The position numbers and the translations under genes are program-made. Under the pieces are notes generated by a model. It saw nothing but the letters and a program-made list of their open reading frames with translations. It was not told the origin of the DNA and ran no database searches. A stretch of 32,961 nucleotides of DNA, taken from assembly GCA_947464215.1 (NCBI GenBank), contig CANHVX010000001.1:1-32961 (forward strand). Reading direction: 5' to 3'. The DNA is from Pseudomonadaceae bacterium. GTDB taxonomy: Bacteria; Pseudomonadota; Alphaproteobacteria; UBA2136; UBA6156. Shown here one piece after another: positions 3,861 through 14,781 of the stretch (positions are counted from its first letter, which is position 1; the number at the start of each line of letters is the position of its first letter).

Positions 3861-5078
3861 CTAGGATGTGCCTTTGAGGCTATAGGTAAGGCCGGCCATC
3901 ACCGCGTAACCGACCACTGTGGCGCAGGCCGCGCCCATAGCCCCCCACGGCCCCACCCACGCCCATGACGCCACCGCCGCCACCGCGCACCCCACCACCG
4001 GCGGCACCACCACCGCCACCCGTTGATGCGCCGCCACCAAGCGGCTCTGCCAGGCCTGGTGCATCCCTGCCAGCACCACCGCCGCCATAAGCATCTGAAA
4101 CGGCACCACCGCCGAGGCAAACGCCTTGCCGAACATGAGAGGAATAATCCAGGGCGCCACCACAACGCCCCCGATGGCCACGGCGAGCATCGCCCCGACC
4201 AGCGCCAGTGTGGCCTGCCGACGCCCCGCCGGGCCCGACTGGGTGCGCGTAAAATGCGTGATAAGCACCGCCCCCGCCAGGCCAGGGATGATAAGTGCTG
4301 TTTCCATAAGAGTGCTGGCAACGCTGTAGTGCCCCGTTGCCGCCAGCTGGCCGCTGCTGCCCAATGCCAAAATGGCCATCTTGGGCAGTGCGAACACGGC
4401 CAGCATAGCCAGCCACGTGGCCCCCAAAAAACCCGCCAGCTCTTGCGCCAACCGCTGACTGACCCGCCAGCCGCTAAGTGGAAGCCTAAGCAGCCAGACG
4501 GTGAGCGCGGTTGCCCCCAGAATGGCGAGCGCATTCACCCACACCACGGCGTTCACCGTGAGCGCGCCCACCCCGATAAGCCCCACCGTGCCGCCCAATA
4601 ACAGCACCCGCTGCGCCATAATGCTGGCCATATTGGGTGCCCAGCCCCCCCGCGTATGCAGCAACGCGCTGGCCCCCGCTGCCAACGCCGCCGCCGGCAC
4701 CACCAGATAGGCCACCAGCTGCAACGATTGCGTGTGCTGGCCCAAGGTGGATTCGAGCAGGCCGTAGGCCATAAGCGGCGTGGCCAGCAGCGTGCCAACA
4801 CAGGCCAAGGCCACCATGGTGCCCAGCAGCACCGGCCACTCGGCCACGCCGTGGCGCGCCGCCAGCTGCCGCGCCGCGTGATAGGTGACCACCGTGGCCA
4901 CCTGCGCCGCCAAGCCTTGCAAGGTAAACACCCACGCGTATATCCCCCGCGCTTCTTCGCCCAGCGCACGCGTGATGAGCACCGTGGACACAAGCCCAAT
5001 GGCCAAAGCACCGACATTGCCGGTGACCAGCTGGCCCGTCTCGCGCGCCAGGCGGAGCACCGTGGGCGGTATGCGCAT
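3861..5078 (-). CDS. Polytopic membrane protein of the Wzx/PST-type oligo- or polysaccharide flippase family
   Basis: 405 aa and about 12 predicted hydrophobic helices. The N-terminal (LITRALGEEARGIYA) and central (GHYSVAS) signatures are typical of the Polysacc_synt family. Its ATG at 5078 lies 3 nt after the stop of the upstream methyltransferase. Confidence 0.65.
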   Translation of the reverse strand: MRIPPTVLRLARETGQLVTGNVGALAIGLVSTVLITRALGEEARGIYAWVFTLQGLAAQVATVVTYHAARQLAARHGVAEWPVLLGTMVALACVGTLLATPLMAYGLLESTLGQHTQSLQLVAYLVVPAAALAAGASALLHTRGGWAPNMASIMAQRVLLLGGTVGLIGVGALTVNAVVWVNALAILGATALTVWLLRLPLSGWRVSQRLAQELAGFLGATWLAMLAVFALPKMAILALGSSGQLAATGHYSVASTLMETALIIPGLAGAVLITHFTRTQSGPAGRRQATLALVGAMLAVAIGGVVVAPWIIPLMFGKAFASAVVPFQMLMAAVVLAGMHQAWQSRLVAAHQRVAVVVPPVVGCAVAAVASWAWVGPWGAMGAACATVVGYAVMAGLTYSLKGTS

Positions 5079-5081
5079 GGG

Positions 5082-5885
5082 TTAGGCCTTGGCCTTCCGC
5101 GCGATAATGAGTGCGCAGCTAAAGGTGAAGGTTTGTGATTCTTCGACAAATTCGGGGGTTAGCTCTTGCGTGGGGACTAAATGGCCTTGGTCGTTCACGT
5201 AGCCAAAATGCGTGATGGTGAAGCCGTTGCGGGCGAGCATATCGTGCAGGCGCGGCAGGCCATAGACCCGCTGGGCATTGAATTCAATACGTTCGCGCCC
5301 CATGGGAGTGGCCAGATACAACTGCCCGCCCGGCGCCGTAAGGGCGGCCAGTGTGGCCAATGCTTTTTCATCGCCGGCGGGGTCGAGCGGGTCTCCGTAG
5401 CGGCCCAGGCCCATGTGCTCGAGCGTGTGGAGGCAGGAGACACTGGGAAATTGCCCCAGTTTTTCGGCGGTGGCCTGCTCCATGAGGTTCACCTGCACAA
5501 AGCGGATGTTGGGGTGCTGGCTTTCCACCGGGCGGATATCGCCCACCAGCACAGGCATGGTGGTTGCCACATGCGCCACGAAGCCATCGATACGGCTGCC
5601 GACATCGAGGTGGGCCTTCGGTGCGGCCTTGACCACCTGCTGCGCCATGACCAAATCCATATGAAAATAATGCCCGCTCATCACGCCGGCGCTCTCGGTG
5701 CGGTCGGTCATCACCGGCCACCAGCGCCCAAACACCCACCCCCCTGGATTGTGCCGCCACTGCCGCCGAAAGGCCATGATTTCGAGCGCATAGCGGGGCA
5801 TCCCGGCTAGTTGGCGGATGGCCTTGAGGCCATCGACCCCGAAGGTTTGCAGCGTGGTGTTGACCGTTTGGAGGAGCTGTTTCAT
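5082..5885 (-). CDS. DUF268-type (class I SAM-dependent-like) methyltransferase
   Basis: Motifs LDVGSRIDGF, SVSCLHTLEHMGLGRYGDPLDPAGD and APGGQLYLATP resemble the DUF268 methyltransferase family. ATG at 5885 (MKQLLQ...); the listed start at 5894 is GTG. Confidence 0.6.
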   Translation of the reverse strand: MKQLLQTVNTTLQTFGVDGLKAIRQLAGMPRYALEIMAFRRQWRHNPGGWVFGRWWPVMTDRTESAGVMSGHYFHMDLVMAQQVVKAAPKAHLDVGSRIDGFVAHVATTMPVLVGDIRPVESQHPNIRFVQVNLMEQATAEKLGQFPSVSCLHTLEHMGLGRYGDPLDPAGDEKALATLAALTAPGGQLYLATPMGRERIEFNAQRVYGLPRLHDMLARNGFTITHFGYVNDQGHLVPTQELTPEFVEESQTFTFSCALIIARKAKA

Positions 5886-5957
5886 GCCCCGCACCCTAAC
5901 CCAGCTGGGCCTTTTGAGCCATGCGTGTGGCTAGAAAATTGGCAGTATCGCCGCCCT

Positions 5958-6527
5958 TTACAGGGTGAGGCCTTGGCGCTCGGCGTAGTCGACCAGGATA
6001 CGGAACGCCACGTTGATGCGTTTGATGTGCTCGGGCGCATCGGGCGACTTGTTAACATCGGGGTGGTGCTGCTTGACCAGCCCCAGATAACGCTTTTTGA
6101 GCACGGCTTCGGCCAGCGGCTGCTCGATGGCGAAAATTGCGCAGGCTTCCTTCACATCGGCGGGCAAATGCCGCGTGCTGGGCAGGCTTTCGCCGTTGCG
6201 CTCGCGCGCGACACGGTTGGTGAAAAAGCCATACAAATCATCCGCCGTTTCAAACGGGTTACGGCCCCCCTTGCCCACCGTGCTGCCCCCTTGCCCGTGC
6301 AGCCCCATGTTCCAGCCCGGCCTTTGCCACTGCGCCGTGCCATCTTGCATTTTATACAATTCTTCCATGGAGAAGCCATCGAGGCCATTCCACCGCTTGT
6401 TGAATTCCTTGATGTGTGCCCCGCAAAAAAACTGGCGCTGGGAGAGATCTCGGGGGTTTTTGGGTGCTGAAAAAGTGCCCTCTTCGGAGCAGTTAGGCCA
6501 TGCGCAGCGTGTTTTAAAGGCATCCAT
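5958..6527 (-). CDS. J-domain protein (C-terminal DnaJ domain, Cys/His-containing N-terminus)
   Basis: C-terminal LKKRYLGLVKQHHPDVNKSPDAPEHIKRINVAFRIL carries the HPD tripeptide. The N-terminus has C-x4-C ... C-x2-H (CAWPNC...FCGAH). Its ATG at 6527 is 4 nt downstream of the prepilin peptidase stop. Confidence 0.8.
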   Translation of the reverse strand: MDAFKTRCAWPNCSEEGTFSAPKNPRDLSQRQFFCGAHIKEFNKRWNGLDGFSMEELYKMQDGTAQWQRPGWNMGLHGQGGSTVGKGGRNPFETADDLYGFFTNRVARERNGESLPSTRHLPADVKEACAIFAIEQPLAEAVLKKRYLGLVKQHHPDVNKSPDAPEHIKRINVAFRILVDYAERQGLTL

Positions 6528-6531
6528 ACCG

Positions 6532-7137
6532 CTAGGTTATGGCGAGCTCCAGCCATTCTGGCAAGTGGGGACAGCACAAAACAACCACCCACCCCACAAT
6601 AAGCGGCACCCCCAACGGGACCATCGCCTGCGGGCGGGCAAACGCCACCGGCAGCCACAGCAGCACCCCCACCGCCACCGCCACGCACGCCCCCACCGGC
6701 CCCAAAAAGGCGACCATGGCCGCCCCTAGGGCCCAATCGCCGCCGCCAACCCCCCGCCCCGGCCACAGCCACCGCGCCAGCCACGCCACCCCCGCCAACG
6801 CCGCCCATATGCCCACAATAACCAGCACCGTGCCCTGCATGAGCCCATGGACCAGGCCCATGGCCATAAGCGGCCAAGTATAGACATTGGGCAGCACGAA
6901 CATGGTGAGATCGACCGCGGCCATACGCGCAAACACGAGCCCCATAAGCACCCCCGCCAGCCCCCACTGCGGCCACAACACCACCGCAAACACCAGCCAA
7001 AACCCAGCCGTAAGCCGCCCCGCATGCCGCAATGCCACAGTGCCGGGCAAGGCATCTTCCGCCACCCCGGTGGCCTTCTCCCACACCGGCAATGCCACCG
7101 GGCCTAACCCCCGCTTTCTTCGCGGCGGGACAAGCAA
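6532..7137 (-). CDS. Prepilin (class III signal) peptidase, A24 family, protease domain only
   Basis: Polytopic membrane protein with both catalytic-Asp contexts: RMAAVDLTMFVLPN and GVGGGDWALGAAMVAFLG (a GxGD-type motif). At about 190-200 aa there is no room for an N-methyltransferase or zinc domain. The start is uncertain: TTG at 7137 overlaps the upstream gene, and GTG at 7098 lies 5 nt after the upstream stop. Confidence 0.75.
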   Translation of the reverse strand: MLVPPRRKRGLGPVALPVWEKATGVAEDALPGTVALRHAGRLTAGFWLVFAVVLWPQWGLAGVLMGLVFARMAAVDLTMFVLPNVYTWPLMAMGLVHGLMQGTVLVIVGIWAALAGVAWLARWLWPGRGVGGGDWALGAAMVAFLGPVGACVAVAVGVLLWLPVAFARPQAMVPLGVPLIVGWVVVLCCPHLPEWLELAIT

Positions 7138-8042
7138 TTCTCGCCGGCGCTGTAACAGAAACTGGCACTGAACGGCGGATCGGTGCGGTTGGTGATGTTG
7201 GTGTGCAGCATAAGCACCCGGCCCCAGGGATCTTGGGCGTAGCTGGCGGGCAGGCCGAGATCGATCATGAACTGTTGCATATCGTCGATATTTCCGCTGC
7301 TATACACGCGCTTGTTCAGCACCTTATCGGTGTAATAGACCACGCCGCTGGTGTCGTCGGAATCGGTTTTGGGATAAAAATTAAAGGCGGTGAAGCTTTT
7401 GCCCTCCATATCGGTGCACCAGCCCGGCGCCCCCTCGGCGTTGCACGTGCCCTGCGCTTCCAGGAAATTGGCCGACTCGGCCGACTCCAGCTTATCGATA
7501 ATCAGGCTGGCACGGCTTTGATACTCTTTCACCCGTTTCACCTCCGATTCACGCGAGGTGTATTTGGTGCCGATATCGTCCTTCTTCAGCTCCCACGCGC
7601 CAAACTCTTCCAGCCCGCCGAAGCCGGCGCTATCATCGACCGTATTCTTACCCCGGCTAAACACCGCCGCAAACTGCACCGTGACCGGCGTATCTTCCAC
7701 CCGCACCGGCGCCGACGCATGGAAATATTCCCATGGATTGCCCCAGGGATCCTTCCGCAACGAGGGATCGGTGAGAATATTCGCGCGGAAGAGATCTTCG
7801 AGGTTATCGGGCAGGCGATTGATGCCTACCGTTTCGTAATACTTGCCCAGCGCGGTGCTGATGATGAGGCTGTTGCGCTCGGCCTCATCGACCTTGGAGC
7901 TTTCGATCCGGCTCATGGCCTGCCAGCCCCCGATGCCCGCCAAAATCGCCATCACGATAAGCGCCACGCGGGCATCCATGCCGAACATGGCCCCGCGTTG
8001 CGTGCTGTTAACCCTACGTTTGGCGTTACTGGCTGCTGGCAT
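7104..8042 (-). CDS. Atypical, oversized GspG-like pseudopilin with two GspG-like modules
   Basis: Basic leader MPAASNAKRRVNSTQRG, then a hydrophobic helix AMFGMDARVALIVMAILAGIGGW. The first module, LGKYYETVG...RKDPWGNPWEY...FSRGKNTVDDS, closely follows the GspG signature (DPWGxxY). A second DPWG (YAQDPWGRVLML) occurs near the C-terminus. The ATG at 8042 overlaps the upstream stop by 17 nt. Confidence 0.6.
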   Translation of the reverse strand: MPAASNAKRRVNSTQRGAMFGMDARVALIVMAILAGIGGWQAMSRIESSKVDEAERNSLIISTALGKYYETVGINRLPDNLEDLFRANILTDPSLRKDPWGNPWEYFHASAPVRVEDTPVTVQFAAVFSRGKNTVDDSAGFGGLEEFGAWELKKDDIGTKYTSRESEVKRVKEYQSRASLIIDKLESAESANFLEAQGTCNAEGAPGWCTDMEGKSFTAFNFYPKTDSDDTSGVVYYTDKVLNKRVYSSGNIDDMQQFMIDLGLPASYAQDPWGRVLMLHTNITNRTDPPFSASFCYSAGENCLSRREESGG

Positions 8043-8739
8043 TGCTGTCGTCCTTCAAGTTAAGTTTCAAGCTTTGTGTGTAATCCCATGGCGTTGTGAA
8101 GCCTATCTGCGCCGATTGCTGGTCGGCACTGACCGTATATTCGAAACTCTGCCCCCAAACATCGCGGAAGCCAAGTTTGGTTGCCATTTCGGTGAATTCG
8201 GAGGTGGAGGGGAATTTCATTTTTGCCGCATAAAACGCATAAACCTGCTCGGCCAGCGAATTCATCCGCATGTTGGACGTGCGCACCTGCCTATCGCGCA
8301 CCGCCGAGGTATCGAGCAGGGCCACCGGCTGTTCGCCGCCGGCCGCCCGGTTCAGCTCTTCGCCATCGGCCGCGCGGTGCATCTGGCTGCGCAGCAAGGT
8401 ATCATCGGACGCCGTAATCGCCACCTGCGACCGCGGCGCCCCAAACCGCCCCTCGGTCTGCTCTTCGCGCACCGTAGCCAAAAAGTTCTGGTCGCCCCGC
8501 GTTTTTCCTGTGGTTGCGGCAAACATCCGCGCGCGCTCGAGCGTGGGCGTTTCGCCATAGGTATCTTTATTTTCCGCCAGCATGGCAAACTCCATCGCCC
8601 CGGCCATATCTTCGGCGCTCCGCGTGGCCTCGGCCTGCTGGCGCTTCTGGATGTTTTCCAACTCTTGCTTGGCCCACTGCATCGACATGGCCGAAAAAAT
8701 GGTCATCCCCATCATCAGGCCCATCATGAAGGGACTCAT
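8026..8739 (-). CDS. Pilin-like protein: N-terminal hydrophobic helix plus a C-terminal GspG-like module
   Basis: Met-rich hydrophobic N-terminus (MSPFMMGLMMGMTIFSAMSMQW), a long charged helix and linker, then LAEQVYAFYAAKMKFPSTSEFTEMATKLGFRDVWGQSFEY, which resembles the GspG alpha1C/DPWG region. ATG at 8739 is preceded by a G-rich SD. Confidence 0.4.
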   Translation of the reverse strand: MSPFMMGLMMGMTIFSAMSMQWAKQELENIQKRQQAEATRSAEDMAGAMEFAMLAENKDTYGETPTLERARMFAATTGKTRGDQNFLATVREEQTEGRFGAPRSQVAITASDDTLLRSQMHRAADGEELNRAAGGEQPVALLDTSAVRDRQVRTSNMRMNSLAEQVYAFYAAKMKFPSTSEFTEMATKLGFRDVWGQSFEYTVSADQQSAQIGFTTPWDYTQSLKLNLKDDSNASSQ

Positions 8740-8751
8740 CCCCCGCCCCCC

Positions 8752-9663
8752 CTAATACGAATATCGGATGATGAGGTCGTGGAGCGAACCGTTCACATCC
8801 AGCCGGACCGTGCGCGGCGCAATCGCTTCCACCTTCACCGGAATATTCACCATCTGCTGCCCCACCCCCGGCGTTTGAGCCCGCACGCGCGCGTAGGCGG
8901 CAATCGCATCTTCATACGCCTCGGTGTAGGGCTTCATGGCATCTTCAGGCAGCGTGCCGGGTGCGGGCATCAATGCGTTCAGGGCATCCATTACCGCCAT
9001 ATCGGGCACAAACACGGGCATGCGCAGCACAAAGCTATCGCCCACCTTATAGCGTGCGCCGTTGATAACCGCGTAGGTCTCGGGCGAGGTGACCACCGCC
9101 TGCAGCGTTAAGCCCGCCAGCGCACCGCCCACGCTATACCCCCGCTGCGGCGGCTGCCACCCCGCCAGCGTGCGCGATATGGTGTTGGCCAAACTGGCCT
9201 TGAACTCGCGCATATCGGGCAACGTGGGCGTAGCATAGGTGGGCAGCTGGCCTGCGCCTGCCAGCAATTGATCGAGCAGGGTTTGCCGGTTGGCCCTTTG
9301 CACCAGCGTGCCGCTGGCATCGCGCACCTCGGTGCCGCTGGCAACTTCGGCCACCTTTAGCCCTAAGGGGTCGGGCACGGCGTCATCGGACGCCATTTGC
9401 ACCATCGTGGGCGGAATAACCGGGGCATCGCCCCCGCGCGCCGCCTTTTGGCGAGAATCGGCCATGGCTTCGTCGCGCGTGAAGGCAAAATCGGGCTGGC
9501 CGGTAAACGTGCGCGGCCATTCAAGATTGGAGCTGCCCCCACGCGCACCGCCCTGCTGCGCCCATACCGCCCACGGCGCCGCCGCCAGCACCATGGCCAG
9601 CCCCATGGCCAACCCCACCCCCCGCGCTGCGGTGCTAGAACAATGTGCCTGGATCATACGCAT
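8752..9663 (-). CDS. Secreted or periplasmic protein, tentatively GspB/GspC-HR/PilP-like
   Basis: Signal peptide (GLAMGLAMVLAAAPWAVWA|QQ). The C-terminal region LTLQAVVTSPETYAVINGARYKVGDSF...VKVEAIAPRTVRLDVNGSLHDLIIRY resembles the xxINGxxxxxGD beta-sandwich signature of GspB/PilP-type proteins. ATG at 9663 has an AAGGA SD; the listed start at 9678 is TTG. Confidence 0.35.
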   Translation of the reverse strand: MRMIQAHCSSTAARGVGLAMGLAMVLAAAPWAVWAQQGGARGGSSNLEWPRTFTGQPDFAFTRDEAMADSRQKAARGGDAPVIPPTMVQMASDDAVPDPLGLKVAEVASGTEVRDASGTLVQRANRQTLLDQLLAGAGQLPTYATPTLPDMREFKASLANTISRTLAGWQPPQRGYSVGGALAGLTLQAVVTSPETYAVINGARYKVGDSFVLRMPVFVPDMAVMDALNALMPAPGTLPEDAMKPYTEAYEDAIAAYARVRAQTPGVGQQMVNIPVKVEAIAPRTVRLDVNGSLHDLIIRYSY

Positions 9664-10132
9664 AGAGGTATCCTTCAATTTGCACCATTCGCAGGCTTTC
9701 GGGGGTGCCGCGCGGTGCTGCCGTGCAATTCAGGCAATAACGATACGGCACAAACCCCGGCAAGGCATTCATGCGCCCCAGGAGCTCTTGCACCTCGGCG
9801 TGGGTGCTGGGCCCTGACACCCGAAACGTGTAACGAAACAACGCCCGATTGCCGCGAATGAGCGGTTGGCCCTGAAATTTCCACTCGAGCCGGGGAGCGC
9901 CGATATCGAGCAGGCGCTCGATATTGAACTTCTGCGCATCGTTGTTCACCAAGCTCATCTTTCTGACAACGTTGATGCGCTGCTGGATATCTTTCCCCAA
10001 ATCGCGCTTATCTTGCGCCTCATACAGTGCCGCCTCACGCTCGGCGAAGGCGCTGCTGTTGCTGGTGTAGCGATATATCCCGAAAATAAGGGCGAAAATG
10101 AATATGGCGATCCCGGCGGTGAATTTTATCAT
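9635..10132 (-). CDS. GspM/PilO-like bitopic inner-membrane assembly protein
   Basis: Architecture is a short N-terminus, one TM helix (FTAGIAIFIFALIFGIY), a coiled-coil and a roughly 90-aa alpha/beta domain (FRYTFRVSGPSTHAEVQELLGRMNALPG...LRMVQIEGYLYAY). Its start overlaps the upstream stop as ATGA (10129-10132). Confidence 0.5.
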   Translation of the reverse strand: MIKFTAGIAIFIFALIFGIYRYTSNSSAFAEREAALYEAQDKRDLGKDIQQRINVVRKMSLVNNDAQKFNIERLLDIGAPRLEWKFQGQPLIRGNRALFRYTFRVSGPSTHAEVQELLGRMNALPGFVPYRYCLNCTAAPRGTPESLRMVQIEGYLYAYDPGTLF

Positions 10133-11460
10133 TGTGCGCCCTCCTCTTCGGCATCGGCGGGTTTTGCCTCGGTTGACGACACCGCCATCAACGCCGGCGC
10201 GACGCTGGCCGGCAACTGCGGCGCGACGCGCTTATACTCCTTCAGCACCGGGACCAACTGCACCAAGCCTTCGAGTTTGAACCCGGTGGTGGACGGCGGC
10301 TTGCGCACCGCGCTGATAAGGGCGCTGTTCAGCAAAAACGCCCGCGCTGCCGGCTCTTGCTGCAACCAGCCGGCGTAGGCCTCGGGTTCGGCGGTGACTG
10401 TCATGAGATAGGCGTTGGGCACCGCGTTGGCATCGGGCACCCGCAGCTCGAGCTGCTCGGCCTTGAACCCACTGGCTGTCACCGAGCGTGCCATATCCTT
10501 GACCGCCAACGCAAACAGGGGGCGGCGCGCGAACATATCTTCTTGCTCTTTCAAGGCTTTTTCAAGGTCGGAGAATTGGCCGCCGCGCGGGATTTGCTGC
10601 TGCACCATGTTCAACTCATCGGTTAACGTTTGCAGCCCCTTCTCTTGGTGCCACAAGCCAGCCCACACCAAACCCGCCACCACAAGCCCACCCGCAAGGA
10701 TATGCATGCCATACTTTTCCTGCATGGTCGGCTCGTTCAGCCATGCGGCGCTTTCCAGCGGCAACTCGCGCAGGCTGTAGGTGCTTATCCGCTCGGATGG
10801 CGTGAGCAGCGTGACATCCCACTGCGTATAAATGTTCACCCGCGTGGTGCGTGGATAGCTGCGCAGCACCGTCTCGACATCGCGCACCCAGCCCGTGGCC
10901 GTGGTGGGCAGCACGTAATTATCCTTGGTGTCCCAATGAAACAAAATATCGGCCGCCAGCATGATGTTGACCGTATTGGGTGCGGCGGGCGGCAGGCGGC
11001 AAAAATCCATCAGCGCCATACCGTGCAGCGCCGGCGGCAGCGCGCTGGACGCTGTCACCGTTTCATCGATCGCCTCGTTCATCAGGAATTGCGCGGGGCT
11101 GACCGGCTGGCCATCGAGCCCGCGCGGCGCAAAAAACACCAGCGCTAGGTTCTTTTTCAGCGTTTCATCGGCGAGGTCGAGCCAGCTTTCGTTCATCACG
11201 GCCTGGGTTTCGCCTTGCATCAGCAGCTCGGCCTTGTTGAGCCCCACCACGCACACGTGGCGGAAGTGCCGCCCCATGCTCTCGGTGCTGCCCGCCGGCT
11301 TGAGCGATGCCCACAGCGCCTTCAGCTGCGGTTTAATATCCTCCCACAGGGGCCCCAACAGCCCCCCTACCTGCTGCCCCAACGCACGCAGCTTGGGCGC
11401 ATACTCTTCGACCACCTTCTGCACGGCGGGAGGAAGCGGTATCTGGTTGCGCGGTATCAT
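10129..11460 (-). CDS. GspL-like (or fused PilM-PilN-like) bitopic protein
   Basis: About 270 aa of cytoplasmic domain, one TM helix (MHILAGGLVVAGLVWAGLW), a coiled-coil and a periplasmic alpha/beta domain. It sits directly between the GspF-like and GspM-like genes. ATG at 11460 is 8 nt after the upstream stop; the listed longer ORF (to 11532) overlaps the gspF-like gene. Confidence 0.5.
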   Translation of the reverse strand: MIPRNQIPLPPAVQKVVEEYAPKLRALGQQVGGLLGPLWEDIKPQLKALWASLKPAGSTESMGRHFRHVCVVGLNKAELLMQGETQAVMNESWLDLADETLKKNLALVFFAPRGLDGQPVSPAQFLMNEAIDETVTASSALPPALHGMALMDFCRLPPAAPNTVNIMLAADILFHWDTKDNYVLPTTATGWVRDVETVLRSYPRTTRVNIYTQWDVTLLTPSERISTYSLRELPLESAAWLNEPTMQEKYGMHILAGGLVVAGLVWAGLWHQEKGLQTLTDELNMVQQQIPRGGQFSDLEKALKEQEDMFARRPLFALAVKDMARSVTASGFKAEQLELRVPDANAVPNAYLMTVTAEPEAYAGWLQQEPAARAFLLNSALISAVRKPPSTTGFKLEGLVQLVPVLKEYKRVAPQLPASVAPALMAVSSTEAKPADAEEEGAQ

Positions 11461-11468
11461 GGTTCTGG

Positions 11469-12572
11469 CTACCCCTGTGACAAGACAATTGACAACATAT
11501 CGCACATCATCAGCGCGCCGCCCAGTATCCACAACACGGCACTGAAAATGCCTACAAATTTTGTATGTGTGTCGGTTAACATACGCTCGAGAATGGCGTG
11601 CGCGTGCTGCATCCCCTCGATAAGAACATCATTCACGTGGCCCGTGGTGGGGGCATAGTTTTCCGCCACGCTGACCGGGGTTACGATGATTTCGGGGAAA
11701 CCCGCACGCTCCATCGCCTGCGCCAGCGTTCCGCCCGTGGTGATGGTGTGGTTAAACTGGTCGATCCGCTTTTTTATCACGAGATTGGTGGCCAGGCCTT
11801 CCATGATGGGTATCAGCTGTTTGGGCTTCACCCCGCTGGCGATAAGATACGGAAAATACAACAACATCTGCGTGTAGGTATGAAACAACAAATAACGGCC
11901 ATACACAGGTATCTTCAGTTGCAACGCATGCAGTGTGGTGCGCCCGGCGGGGTTGGAATTCAGCGACCAGATCATCAGCCCCATCAACAGAAACATGCCC
12001 ACAAAAATATACCAATACTGCGAACAAAAGGCCGTTGTTTCCATAATGCCGTTGGGCAGCATCCCCATCGGTTTGCCCTGCGCCTCGCGCACACGGGCCA
12101 TAACAGGCAGCGTGTTGAGCCCTGTATTAAACAAGCTTGCCAACGACAACAGCATCATAAGAAACGGCGTGAGCAGCTCGGCCAGGCCTGCGCGTGAGGA
12201 ATTGATTTTTTTATCTTCCAAAATACGCAAAATCTCGAACGATTTCTGCATATTGTTGGCCGCTTCGCCGGCCAAAATGGCGGCACGGTGGAGGTCGGTG
12301 AACATCGTGCGCTCGGACACCATGGCGGCGCTGAGCGACTTGCCCTGCGACACCTTCTGCGCCAAACCCGCCACCGCCGACGCAATGGCATCCTTCTTCT
12401 CATTCCGGAACGCCTTGGCCACCGCCCGCAAGGCATCGGACGTGGTTTGGCCCGTCTTCATCATCATCGCCATGAAGAAAAAGAACCGCTCGCGGTCGCG
12501 CGCATCCATGCCGCCGCCCGCAAATCCACTCCATCCACCGCCACCTGCCACTGCCACTTTTGCCTGCGCCAT
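11469..12572 (-). CDS. Type II secretion/type IV pilus platform protein (GspF/PilC family)
   Basis: Two T2SSF-like repeats (FFFFMAMMMKTGQTTSDALRAVAK... and YTQMLLYFPYLIASGVKPKQLIPIMEGLA...), each followed by TM segments, and a third TM at the C-terminus. ATG at 12572 is 11 nt after the ATPase stop. Confidence 0.85.
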   Translation of the reverse strand: MAQAKVAVAGGGGWSGFAGGGMDARDRERFFFFMAMMMKTGQTTSDALRAVAKAFRNEKKDAIASAVAGLAQKVSQGKSLSAAMVSERTMFTDLHRAAILAGEAANNMQKSFEILRILEDKKINSSRAGLAELLTPFLMMLLSLASLFNTGLNTLPVMARVREAQGKPMGMLPNGIMETTAFCSQYWYIFVGMFLLMGLMIWSLNSNPAGRTTLHALQLKIPVYGRYLLFHTYTQMLLYFPYLIASGVKPKQLIPIMEGLATNLVIKKRIDQFNHTITTGGTLAQAMERAGFPEIIVTPVSVAENYAPTTGHVNDVLIEGMQHAHAILERMLTDTHTKFVGIFSAVLWILGGALMMCDMLSIVLSQG

Positions 12573-12583
12573 GCTGATGTGCC

Positions 12584-14281
12584 CTACGTTTTCAGCGCTT
12601 CTAGGTCGGCACTGAAGAAGCGTTCCACCTCGTCGAGGCTGGTGATGCCCTTCTGCACATGTGACAGGCCCTGCGCCAGCATGTCCTTCATGCCCGATGT
12701 GGCCGCCTGCTCGCGCACCACATCGATCCAATCGGGCCGCAAGCGGTTGCCCGACCACACGTTCCGGGAAATCTCGCGCCGCCAGACCTCGAGCACCTCT
12801 TCCATAGCAATACGCCCATTGTAGCCGCGATTATGGCACAGTTCGCAGCCATTACGGTTGGGGCGATAGATAGGATCTCCGCGCTTAAAGCCGACATTAC
12901 GCACGCTGTTGAGGCTATCGGCCATCTGGGCATCGAGCTCATACGGCACACGGCACTTGGGGCACAGGCGCCGCACCAACCGCTGCGCCACAATGCCCCG
13001 CACGTTGGAGAAAATAAGCTCGGGCGGCACACCGCGCTGCAGCAGGCGGTCCATCGTCATGAAGCTATCGTTCGCGTGCATGGTGGTGATAACCAGGTGC
13101 CCCAAGTTCCCGGCGTCGACCACGCGGCGCGTGTCTTCGGGGCTACGCACCTCACCGATAAACATCACGTCGGGGTCGAGACCCAAGGCTGCATAAAGAA
13201 AGCTCTCAAGATTCACTCCGGAAGGAATATCTTCCTCGGTTTGAATGACGTTATCCATCCGCTCTTCGATTTGCTTCTCGTAGGCAATCACGTTCTGGCC
13301 GGGGCGCTGGCCGCGACGAATCATCAGGCGGCAGGCGGTGGACTTCCCGCTACCCGTGGGGCCGGCAAAAATAATCACGCCCTCTTCAAAGCGCATCAGT
13401 GCGTCGATTTTATCAATCGTTTCCTGCGAGTAGCCGAACGTTTCCATCTGGCCTTCAAATGGGCGCAGGAAACGCATGGCGATTTTGGCCGTGTTTTCCA
13501 GCGTAATCGGCTGCGTGGTGTAGCGGATATCGACGCTTTGGCGGTTGGTGAGCTCGAACGTCATCCGGCCATACAGCGGCTTCTTGAAGTTTTCGGCACT
13601 GACGCCTGCCATGTGCCGCAAGCGGCCCACCACGCGGTCGTAGACTTCCATCGGCAGCGCCACCAGCTCTTCCAGCTCGTTATCGATACGCGCCATAACC
13701 GTGGGCTTGCGGTTAAGAATCTCGATGTGCAAGTCGGATGCGCCGTTTTTGTAGGCCGTGCGGATAATCTCATCCACCAAGCTTATCACCGCGTCGTCGT
13801 TCCCCGCGTTCAGCTGCGCGTAGGCGTTTTCCACCAAAAACTTGAGGCTGTGCCCCTCGCGCTTGTTCATCCGCTCGATCGCGCTTTCGATGCTTTTCGG
13901 CGTGGCCCACACAAATACGTGGCTGTTTTTGCGGTTGCGCAACAAAATCTCGCTGTGCAGGCGCTTATTGGGGAGATCGGATGCGGCCCAGGTGACGGTA
14001 TTGCGGCCCAGCTCGATGGGGCAAGCCGTATAAAACTGCAAAAAGGCGCGGTCTATCCCCTCGACCTGGTGGGGTGTGACCTTGGCCATTTCTTCATCGT
14101 TTTTAATAGGATACTCATACGCCACCGCACGGTAACGCGACTGCTGGTTGTTCGTTAATTTCCCCGCCTTACCCAGCGCTTCGATCAGCTGGTCGGGGTC
14201 CTTCTGGACCGTGACCGGCAGATTATGCAAATCGGTGATCGAAATCACCCGATCGGCAATCATAAGGTCGACAATATCCAT
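12584..14281 (-). CDS. Type II secretion/type IV pilus assembly ATPase (GspE/PilB family)
   Basis: T2SSE_N-like N-terminal domain, Walker A (FAGPTGSGKST), Walker B/Asp box region (DPDVMFIGEVR), His box (GHLVITTMHAN) and a tetracysteine motif (CPKC...CELCHNRGYNGR). ATG at 14281 (MDIVDLM...); the listed start at 14311 is GTG. Confidence 0.9.
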   Translation of the reverse strand: MDIVDLMIADRVISITDLHNLPVTVQKDPDQLIEALGKAGKLTNNQQSRYRAVAYEYPIKNDEEMAKVTPHQVEGIDRAFLQFYTACPIELGRNTVTWAASDLPNKRLHSEILLRNRKNSHVFVWATPKSIESAIERMNKREGHSLKFLVENAYAQLNAGNDDAVISLVDEIIRTAYKNGASDLHIEILNRKPTVMARIDNELEELVALPMEVYDRVVGRLRHMAGVSAENFKKPLYGRMTFELTNRQSVDIRYTTQPITLENTAKIAMRFLRPFEGQMETFGYSQETIDKIDALMRFEEGVIIFAGPTGSGKSTACRLMIRRGQRPGQNVIAYEKQIEERMDNVIQTEEDIPSGVNLESFLYAALGLDPDVMFIGEVRSPEDTRRVVDAGNLGHLVITTMHANDSFMTMDRLLQRGVPPELIFSNVRGIVAQRLVRRLCPKCRVPYELDAQMADSLNSVRNVGFKRGDPIYRPNRNGCELCHNRGYNGRIAMEEVLEVWRREISRNVWSGNRLRPDWIDVVREQAATSGMKDMLAQGLSHVQKGITSLDEVERFFSADLEALKT

Positions 14282-14475
14282 CCGTGCGCAGTCCAGCCCT
14301 GTTTCTGGCACAGATTAGCCGAATTCCCGGCCGTTTGCAGCACTTCGGCGCCATTCCGCTGGCCCCCTGTGGCTATGTGGCCACGTTGGAGGCATTGTGG
14401 GGCAACAGACTTCAGAGGCTTTACGTGGGGGGATTGTATGGGGTTCGCGCGCGCGTGGTAAGGCGGCGCGATGGG

Positions 14476-14570: not shown

Positions 14571-14645
14571 TGGTGGGCAATGAGAGATTCGAACTCCCGA
14601 CCCCCTCCGTGTAAAGGAGAAGCTCTACCGCTGAGCTAATTGCCC
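14571..14645 (-). tRNA. tRNA-Val (anticodon TAC)
   Basis: Hand-folded cloverleaf: GGGCAAT/ATTGCCC acceptor, GCTC/GAGC D-stem, TCTCC-TTTACAC-GGAGG anticodon arm, GGGAG-TTCGAAT-CTCTC T-arm, and an encoded CCA. 75 nt. Confidence 0.93.
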
Positions 14646-14704
14646 GAGAACCGTATTCTGCACTCCCTTTGCGGGGAATGGGTGCCCGTTTTGTTTAACA
14701 AAAC

Positions 14705-14781
14705 TGGCGGAAGCGACGGGACTCGAACCCGCGACCCTCGGCGTGACAAGCCGATACTCTAACCAACTGAGCTACGCCTCC
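14705..14781 (-). tRNA. tRNA-Asp (anticodon GTC)
   Basis: Hand-folded: GGAGGCG/CGCTTCC acceptor, TCGGC-TTGTCAC-GCCGA anticodon arm, GCGGG-TTCGAGT-CCCGT T-arm, discriminator G and CCA. 77 nt. Closely parallels E. coli tRNA-Asp. Confidence 0.93.

Follow-up and report, generated by a model that had tools for sequence, protein, structure and literature searches.

A divergent type IV filament-assembly operon conserved in an uncultured, deep-branching alphaproteobacterial lineage

How would a bacterium with two membranes assemble a type IV filament (T4F) from a gene cluster that encodes an assembly ATPase, a platform protein, pilin-like proteins and a prepilin peptidase, and in which no secretin gene is found? 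The question is raised by a block of minus-strand genes in a 32,961-nucleotide (nt) stretch of contig CANHVX010000001.1 (assembly GCA_947464215.1), which we refer to as the window; its source is labelled a Pseudomonadaceae bacterium and is placed by GTDB in the Alphaproteobacteria (UBA2136; UBA6156). A first-pass annotation had taken the block for a compact eight-gene T4F module with neither a secretin nor canonical pilins. Here we report that the cluster is a real, highly divergent filament-assembly operon that is conserved in an uncultured, deep-branching alphaproteobacterial lineage. We consider it quite probable that it forms the core operon of a lineage-specific T4F machine whose scaffold is more similar to that of type II secretion systems (T2SSs) than to that of type IVa pili (T4aP).

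A nine-gene operon conserved across species

Nine consecutive open reading frames occupy positions 5958–14281 of the minus strand, to which all gene coordinates below refer, in the order E, F, L, M, P, pil1, pil2, peptidase and a J-domain gene. All eight tightly packed genes that had been described were present; the ninth, which adjoins the peptidase gene, had been missed. Gene sizes and starts are those called on public contigs with the same sequence as the window, which give proteins of 565 (E), 367 (F), 443 (L), 165 (M), 303 (P), 237 (pil1), 312 (pil2), 188 (peptidase) and 189 (DnaJ-domain protein) amino acids. Five starts were corrected relative to the longest open reading frames (F to 12572, L to 11460, P to 9663, the peptidase to 7098 and E to 14281); the start of E had been placed at 14311. 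Successive genes are separated by 11 nt (E to F), 8 nt (F to L), 12 nt (P to pil1), 5 nt (pil2 to peptidase) and 4 nt (peptidase to J-domain gene), or overlap by 4 nt (L and M), 29 nt (M and P) and 17 nt (pil1 and pil2).

Scanning one genome per GTDB species yielded 29 related loci. All belong to metagenome-assembled genomes (MAGs), whose labels are Alphaproteobacteria, Proteobacteria or "Magnetococcales" apart from a few that are evidently wrong. The genes are close-packed and syntenic in more than 20 uncultured genomes, well beyond what chance would give: wherever a locus is long enough, its genes run E-F-L-M-P-pil1-pil2, in most cases with the peptidase and the dnaJ-like gene next in line. 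Identity to the window proteins ranges from 66–90% for E and 48–79% for F to 25–60% for L, 24–75% for M, 21–49% for P, 24–54% for pil1, 28–70% for pil2 and 24–51% for the peptidase. Taken with the conserved order, these ranges indicate that the genes are maintained under constraint, and every protein family of the cluster contains many invariant alignment columns. Three loci (L001, L003 and L027) carry a citrate-synthase-like gene after pil2, with the peptidase and dnaJ-like gene detached there; cluster membership thus differs among close relatives.

MarineProteo1 is a deep-branching lineage that has been used in analyses of mitochondrial ancestry, and one of the 29 loci (L022) stems from MarineProteo1_Bin2. 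In the trees of PMC10411912, this lineage, represented by MAGs only, is basal to the core alphaproteobacteria.

The J-domain protein (5958–6527) matches Pfam DnaJ (6.7e-9) with a C-terminal J domain that follows a Cys/His-rich N terminus (C..C...C..H). Its gene adjoins the peptidase gene in 15 loci, mostly at a distance of 0–5 nt, with protein identities of 35–71%. Because the two genes are adjacent in nearly all loci that have both, we regard the J-domain gene as a probable ninth operon member; to our knowledge, a J-domain co-chaperone is unusual as a conserved member of a T4F operon.

The ATPase, platform protein and peptidase belong to known families

Sequence matches assign three of the proteins firmly to families, in line with the first-pass annotation. 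E (12584–14281) is a GspE/PilB-type assembly ATPase, with a Pfam T2SSE match of 4.7e-69 (233 bits against a cut-off of 24.9) and an N-terminal domain of the MshEN/T2SSE_N type (Pfam MshEN, 25.1 bits against a cut-off of 23.1). We located its Walker A motif (GPTGSGKS) at residue 307, Walker B at 369, the His box at 394 and the tetracysteine motif CPKC/CELC at 440 and 479. As had been suspected, the module is very divergent and fits no named subtype. E scored 251.9 bits with the NCBIfam model for GspE (TIGR02533; cut-off 630) and 248.2 bits with that for PilB (TIGR02538; cut-off 675), that is, about 40% of each cut-off, and 23 bits with the TadA-type model. Among PDB proteins, the scores were 186 bits for EpsE, 179 for PilB and 89 for BfpD.

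We also ran an exhaustive HMMER search with E against 1.84 billion representatives of clusters at 50% identity. One representative was 84% identical to E and all others were at most 37% identical. With no relatives between these values, E is isolated and not nested close to any sampled system; for both E and F, placement was judged from this kind of score and identity profile in place of a reference phylogeny. After the single close relative, the next best-scoring relatives of E were tandem double ATPases of about 1,000 residues, each with two stretches of the T2SSE type (P0216–P0229).

The platform protein F (11469–12572), of the GspF/PilC type, matches Pfam T2SSF in two stretches (2.7e-14; 53.7 bits against a cut-off of 25.2) and has three hydrophobic segments, at residues 130–148, 186–204 and 339–357. 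Its best NCBIfam model is GspF (TIGR02120), at 95.8 bits against a cut-off of 424, and PilC models gave at most 60.9 bits against 700.

The peptidase (6532–7098) is a short member of the A24 prepilin peptidase family. All 16 orthologues compared match Peptidase_A24, with a best value of 3.2e-15; the window copy scored 17.7 bits, under the cut-off of 26.5, and retains both conserved catalytic Asp motifs, DLTMFVLPN and GGGD. By hhalign, the family matched E. coli GspO with 97.8% probability. With at least four membrane helices and 188 residues, compared with about 225 in E. coli GspO, the enzyme has no N-terminal methyltransferase domain and therefore probably does not N-methylate prepilins.

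A divergent inner-membrane scaffold

The three genes that follow F encode proteins whose predicted membrane topologies, like those of the other cluster proteins, agree with their proposed roles. For L (10129–11460), we found no sequence match in Pfam, NCBIfam or the PDB, and a profile search against PDB sequences returned chance-level matches. Its 66 homologues, all unnamed, were used to build an AlphaFold2 model with a predicted local distance difference test (pLDDT) score of 88.6. In the model, a single membrane helix at about residues 251–269 joins a cytoplasmic domain to a periplasmic coiled region, and the protein also has a ferredoxin-like domain. When Foldseek was run against the PDB, five of the six leading matches were to the cytoplasmic domain of PulL, EpsL or GspL (E 3e-3 to 7e-3, probability 0.87–0.91, template modelling (TM) score about 0.3), and PilO was matched at E 0.1 by the periplasmic ferredoxin-like part. 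The GspL-like character first suggested for this protein thus appears, with moderate confidence, at the level of the predicted fold.

M (9635–10132), proposed to be GspM/PilO-like, is a small bitopic protein that has the place of GspM/PilO after GspL/PilMN and the expected size, with an N-terminal membrane helix, a periplasmic part and, in 22 of 22 orthologues, an invariant CxxC at residues 133 and 136, which we do not know as a feature of GspM or PilO. None of the 22 orthologues matched a Pfam family. By hhalign, the M family matched nothing in the L family and E. coli GspM with a probability of 0.2%, the latter being a single-sequence template. By its position, size and topology, M is at most a tentative candidate for a GspM/PilO-like protein.

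P (8752–9663) is exported to the periplasm, as first read, with a signal peptide ending in A-x-A↓Q (here and below, arrows mark predicted cleavage sites). An invariant WPRTF.GQPDF.F motif is followed by a variable linker and a C-terminal beta domain that is split by a helical insert; this C-terminal half was modelled by AlphaFold2 with pLDDT above 93. The likeness to GspB or PilP that had been proposed proved to be weak. Twelve of 22 orthologues partially match Pfam T2SSB, the best at 8e-6 and all under the 28.4-bit cut-off; the two halves of this 60-position model match P on opposite sides of the helical insert. Foldseek returned no significant neighbour of the P model, with the homology region (HR) domain of PulC ranking 46th at E 2.6, so that the idea of an HR domain in P hinges on the sub-threshold T2SSB matches. 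Tentatively, P may be a connector of the GspB/GspC-HR/PilP type.

The pilins share a non-canonical prepilin signal

First-pass annotation had called both pil1 and pil2 GspG-like; the comparison upheld this for pil2. For pil2 (7104–8042), 21 of 22 orthologues match Pfam T2SSG (best 1.9e-7; window copy E 0.042), and hhalign aligned the family with E. coli GspG over 108 columns (79% probability, E 1.6e-5). The NCBIfam model for GspG (TIGR01710) gave 16 bits against a cut-off of 88.85, and a profile search against PDB sequences gave chance-level matches only. The protein also contains a DPWGNPWEY motif. The sequence matches support the view of pil2 as a large GspG-like pilin. A possible internal duplication of the GspG-like domain was rejected, since the only match was a 23-column helix at 29% probability.

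For pil1 (8026–8739), no Pfam or PDB match was found. By hhalign, the N termini of pil1 and pil2 can be aligned (E 2.9e-4, probability 40%), and a DVWGQSFEY motif lies at residue 193 of pil1. The N terminus and this DxWG motif are its only pilin-like features and weakly suggest a minor-pilin-like protein.

No window protein carries a canonical G↓FTLIE signal, as had been noted; it had been concluded from this that proper prepilins were lacking, a conclusion that we can now revise. In the window, the signal of pil2 reads Q-R-G↓A-M-F-G-M-D-A-R-V-A-L-I-V and runs into a hydrophobic helix. All pil2 orthologues carry Q-x-G-A-M-F-G-M-D-A-R-I-A-L followed by such a helix, with Q15, G17, A18, F20, D23, A24 and R25 invariant. 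When we compared the upstream reading frames of 21 pil1 orthologues, the frame extended in 19 other genomes to N-Q-[RK]-G-A-F-S-P-F-M-F-G-L. A Q-x-G-A-(M/F) motif is thus common to pil1 orthologues, pil2 and a pilin of about 185 residues described below, and had gone unnoticed. We infer that Q-x-G↓A-(M/F) is a non-canonical class III-type signal, with predicted cleavage after Gly and Ala at +1. The acidic residue of the pil2 signal is at +6, not +5, and pil1 has no acidic residue near +5/+6; the canonical rule, Gly at −1 and Glu at +5, is believed to control how pilins are recruited.

One subclade (the window, L004 and L029) has lost the pil1 leader: only 12 nt separate the stop codon of P from the ATG of pil1, whose product begins with M-S-P-F (window 8026–8751). 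These variants begin one residue past the predicted cleavage site, which supports where we place it.

The lost pil1 leader, the several proteins without a family match and the sub-threshold Pfam score of the window peptidase might all be expected of a decaying, non-functional T4F remnant. However, none of the nine reading frames is broken and their synteny holds across genomes in which the ATPases differ by up to 34%, the catalytic motifs of E and the peptidase are kept, each family has its many invariant columns, and L and P gave confident models. Decay is therefore a very improbable explanation, and we retain that of a divergent but maintained T4F machine.

A probable major pilin and a multi-locus system

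In nine marine loci, a cytochrome c gene and a gene for a pilin of about 185 residues lie directly upstream of E, with two pilin copies in L020. The pilin has the leader S-Q-[RK]-G↓A-[ML]-F-G-[ML]-D-A-R, a long N-terminal helix, a W-[SNK]-G-P-Y motif and two invariant Cys residues. Its mature form has about 175 residues and a variable C-terminal part, in which a disulfide resembling that of a D-region is predicted. A profile search with this protein returned 1,862 relatives. In the freshwater carriers of the cluster that were checked, the pilin gene is again beside this cytochrome c gene, flanked by rpmH-rnpA-yidD-yidC on one side and topA on the other. In the MAG VAFM01, the pilin is on contig 2 and the cluster on contig 1; in a JGI genome, the pilin has its own locus on the same 1.36-Mb contig as an L homologue.

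The window does not contain this pilin. The position upstream of E is held by tRNA-Val(TAC) and tRNA-Asp(GTC) genes (14571–14781, minus strand), where marine relatives have the cytochrome c and pilin genes, and the ancestral cluster therefore appears to have been broken there. The pilin of about 185 residues is likely to be the major pilin of the system. Because the system is distributed over several loci, a gene missing from the window cannot be read as missing from the genome. The description of a secretin-less machine with no canonical pilins had thus over-read one window, given that the freshwater relatives checked keep a probable major pilin elsewhere.

The route across the outer membrane

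The host is diderm, as first stated, since genes for Omp85/BamA and LpxD/A/I/B are present. A filament that leaves the cell would therefore have to pass the outer membrane, and we looked for a secretin locally, that is, within ±10 kb of the window genes on the 93.8-kb contig, in the flanks of the related clusters and around two pilin loci. Across about 51 kb of the window's contig, none of the called genes has a recorded Secretin match (PF00263), in agreement with the original observation for the window. Nor was a secretin candidate found in the ±10-kb flanks of the 29 loci, all from distinct species, or in those of the separate pilin locus of two genomes. The cluster proteins also include no PDZ domain, no match to GspC and nothing resembling GspH/I/J/K, as had likewise been reported; in hhalign comparisons of all families with E. 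coli GspC/H/I/J/K, only N-terminal helices aligned, although these single-sequence templates limit sensitivity.

The cluster could accordingly represent an undescribed, truly secretin-independent T4F class of this lineage, with its own Q-x-G↓A-M-F-G-M-D-A-R signal, a short non-methylating peptidase and P in a new connector, whose filament either crosses the outer membrane by a non-secretin route or stops beneath it in the periplasm. Such a reading would agree with the consistent local absence of a secretin, with the failure of structure searches to recognise P as an HR domain, and with the gene order: layouts of the pilMNOPQ type have the secretin after the PilP-like gene, and pilin genes stand there instead. 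We nevertheless think it unlikely. In multi-locus systems, secretin genes are often unlinked, and local absence of a secretin says little about the genome of a system that is itself multi-locus. Moreover, the sole similarity detectable in P is to the C-terminal region of GspB, a region described as anchoring the secretin pore in Dickeya (PMC9239104). Because P resembles only this region and secretin genes are commonly unlinked, the outer-membrane conduit of the divergent T4F machine is probably encoded elsewhere and is probably a secretin.

Relationship to known filament systems

With its single-gene L, a protein at the position of M, a GspB-like protein and a GspG-like pilin, the scaffold comes nearest to that of the T2SS (Gsp/Eps/Pul, for example, E. 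coli K-12 gspC-O). Shared features are a GspE-type ATPase with a tetracysteine motif and N-terminal domain, a three-helix GspF-type platform, a single-gene GspL-type protein (cytoplasmic domain, membrane helix and ferredoxin-like domain) followed by a small bitopic protein, a pilin with the GspG signature DPWG..Y, a possible GspB/GspC-HR-like connector and a prepilin peptidase at the end of the operon.

These similarities raise the alternative that the cluster is the inner-membrane half of an ordinary T2SS that has been split, with GspD, GspC and GspH–K encoded elsewhere and an odd appearance due to fast evolution. The GspL-like fold of L, the T2SSG and T2SSB matches, the preference of F for the GspF model and the spread of the system over several loci would all agree with this. 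By contrast, E scores equally for GspE and PilB in NCBIfam and likewise for EpsE and PilB in the PDB, and the gap in its relatives between 37 and 84% identity argues against close nesting in any sampled T2SS. Unlike in a T2SS, the genes run E-F-L-M-P-pilins-peptidase and the putative major pilin is encoded either directly ahead of E or at a different locus, and neither GspD nor a PDZ-containing GspC is found in the 51 kb. The signal Q-x-G↓A-M-F-G-M-D, with its acidic residue at +6, differs from G↓F-T-L-x-E with Glu at +5, and the 188-residue peptidase lacks the methyltransferase domain. The putative major pilin, with about 175 mature residues and its D-region-like disulfide, is unlike GspG; the role of minor pilins would already be taken by pil1 and pil2, which are large (237 and 312 residues) and, in the hhalign comparison with single sequences, unlike E. 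coli GspH–K. Scores are also far under the GspE, GspF and GspG cut-offs. On balance, a split T2SS seems to us a minority explanation, and a lineage-specific machine with a T2SS-like scaffold remains the preferred one. A link to the mitochondrial T2SS (miT2SS) was considered and rejected: compared with eukaryotic GspE (PMC8134430 supplement), E of the window and its marine orthologues rank near the bottom, well below E. coli GspE.

Resemblance to T4aP is more limited. The ATPase is as near to PilB as to GspE, the order L-M-P parallels PilM plus PilN, PilO and PilP, and a long N-terminal helix and a C-terminal disulfide, as in type IV pilins, are features of the putative major pilin. However, L resembles GspL structures rather than PilM, no PilQ follows the PilP-like gene, no PilT or PilU was seen, the signal has neither Phe at +1 nor Glu at +5, and the peptidase lacks the methyltransferase part of PilD.

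Tad/Flp systems have a short A24 peptidase without a methyltransferase domain, and Flp-type signals have Ala at +1 after the cleaved Gly; both features recur here. The ATPase, in contrast, is of the GspE/PilB type (23 bits with the TadA model, 252 with GspE), the platform is a single two-domain protein of the GspF type in place of TadB and TadC, and the pilins have 185–312 residues rather than about 60.

In the survey of Denise, Abby and Rocha 2019 (PMC6668835), the generic class of the type IV filament superfamily (TFF) comprises systems with an ATPase, a platform, one or more pilins and a peptidase that fit no specific model, and 884 systems remained unassigned; the peptidase and, in diderms, the secretin count as accessory in its definition. 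The cluster has the corresponding ATPase, platform, A24 peptidase and pilin with a class III signal, non-canonical in this case, and we infer that it would fall among these generic systems. Members of that class, such as the atypical, T2SS-like systems of Chlamydiae and Bacteroidetes, have the same component set. The chlamydial systems are without GspL and GspM, whereas the cluster keeps an L-like protein and a protein at the position of M. Our literature searches found no described equivalent and nothing relevant on secretin-less T4F systems of diderms.

Genomic context of the operon

Promoter-like and terminator-like sites, both consensus matches only, flank the block from E to the dnaJ-like gene. 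A sigma-70-like promoter match on the minus strand (14433–14461), about 150 nt upstream of the start of E, fits the consensus at 9 of 12 positions; such matches were not enriched over shuffled sequence. At the other end, a terminator-like hairpin and T-run (5941–5955, minus strand) directly follow the stop codon of the J-domain gene, a location that would fit a nine-gene transcription unit.

Further upstream, past the two tRNA genes, lie lpxB, lpxI, lpxA, fabZ, lpxD, ompH and bamA. The G+C content of 0.58–0.63 across the cluster is the same as in its flanks, with no sign of recent transfer, and we therefore rejected the notion of a genomic island inserted at the tRNA genes. Just downstream of the operon (3861–5894, minus strand) are genes for a DUF268 methyltransferase and a 405-residue polytopic membrane protein without a Pfam match; neither gave a tblastn match in any related locus, and the pair is therefore probably a separate unit.

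An orphan T2SSE-family ATPase of 311 residues is encoded on the window's contig, about 5 kb past the right end of the window, between nuoN and a NUDIX gene (L035:5231–6166). Its best-scoring model was VirB11, with 204.8 bits under a cut-off of 250; PilT gave 41 bits, and no other type IV secretion genes were found near it.

Discussion

By analogy with T2SSs and T4P, the following mechanism can be proposed. The short A24 peptidase would cut prepilins after the conserved Gly of Q-x-G↓A-(M/F), probably without N-methylation. The ATPase E, as a zinc-binding hexamer, would dock both on L, at its cytoplasmic domain, and on the platform F, whose ATP-driven movements would lift pilins from the inner membrane into a helical filament. 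In this filament, pil1, which has no acidic residue, and the large pil2 may serve as low-abundance priming or tip subunits, and the body would consist of the pilin of about 185 residues, with the same signal and a C-terminal disulfide. M could pair with the periplasmic domain of L, and P may reach from the platform towards an outer-membrane conduit encoded elsewhere, most likely a secretin. As to the output, we lean towards a surface pilus, because the putative major pilin is large, disulfide-bearing, C-terminally variable and sometimes duplicated; a periplasmic pseudopilus is the less probable of the two.

Several points weigh against such a machine. No cluster component reaches the curated cut-off of any named equivalog in NCBIfam; the GspL matches of L are modest (E about 3e-3, TM about 0.3); M is without homology or structural support; and the T2SSB matches of P are partial and sub-threshold, with no significant structural neighbour of its model. 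A secretin was seen nowhere in the sequence examined, be it the 51 kb of contig, the 29 flanks or the two pilin loci. Nor was a retraction ATPase (PilT/PilU) seen, the only other T2SSE-family gene nearby being the VirB11-like one. All hosts are MAGs, known here from genes alone, and which pilin is the major one and what the system does are both deduced.

T4F systems have been classified mainly from cultured members of the Proteobacteria and Firmicutes. For five of the nine proteins of the operon, and for the probable major pilin as well, no curated family gives a match, and the ATPase has no intermediate relatives in 15 billion proteins; current Pfam and NCBIfam models therefore miss whole lineages. 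The Q-x-G↓A signal, with its acidic residue at +6 and a short A24 peptidase, is a variation on the rule of Gly at −1 and Glu at +5, and the leaderless pil1 variants make that rule testable. Should the system truly operate without a secretin, it would bear on how filaments cross the outer membrane. And if the operon does build a surface organelle specific to the MarineProteo1-type group, it would offer a handle on the unknown lifestyle of this lineage.

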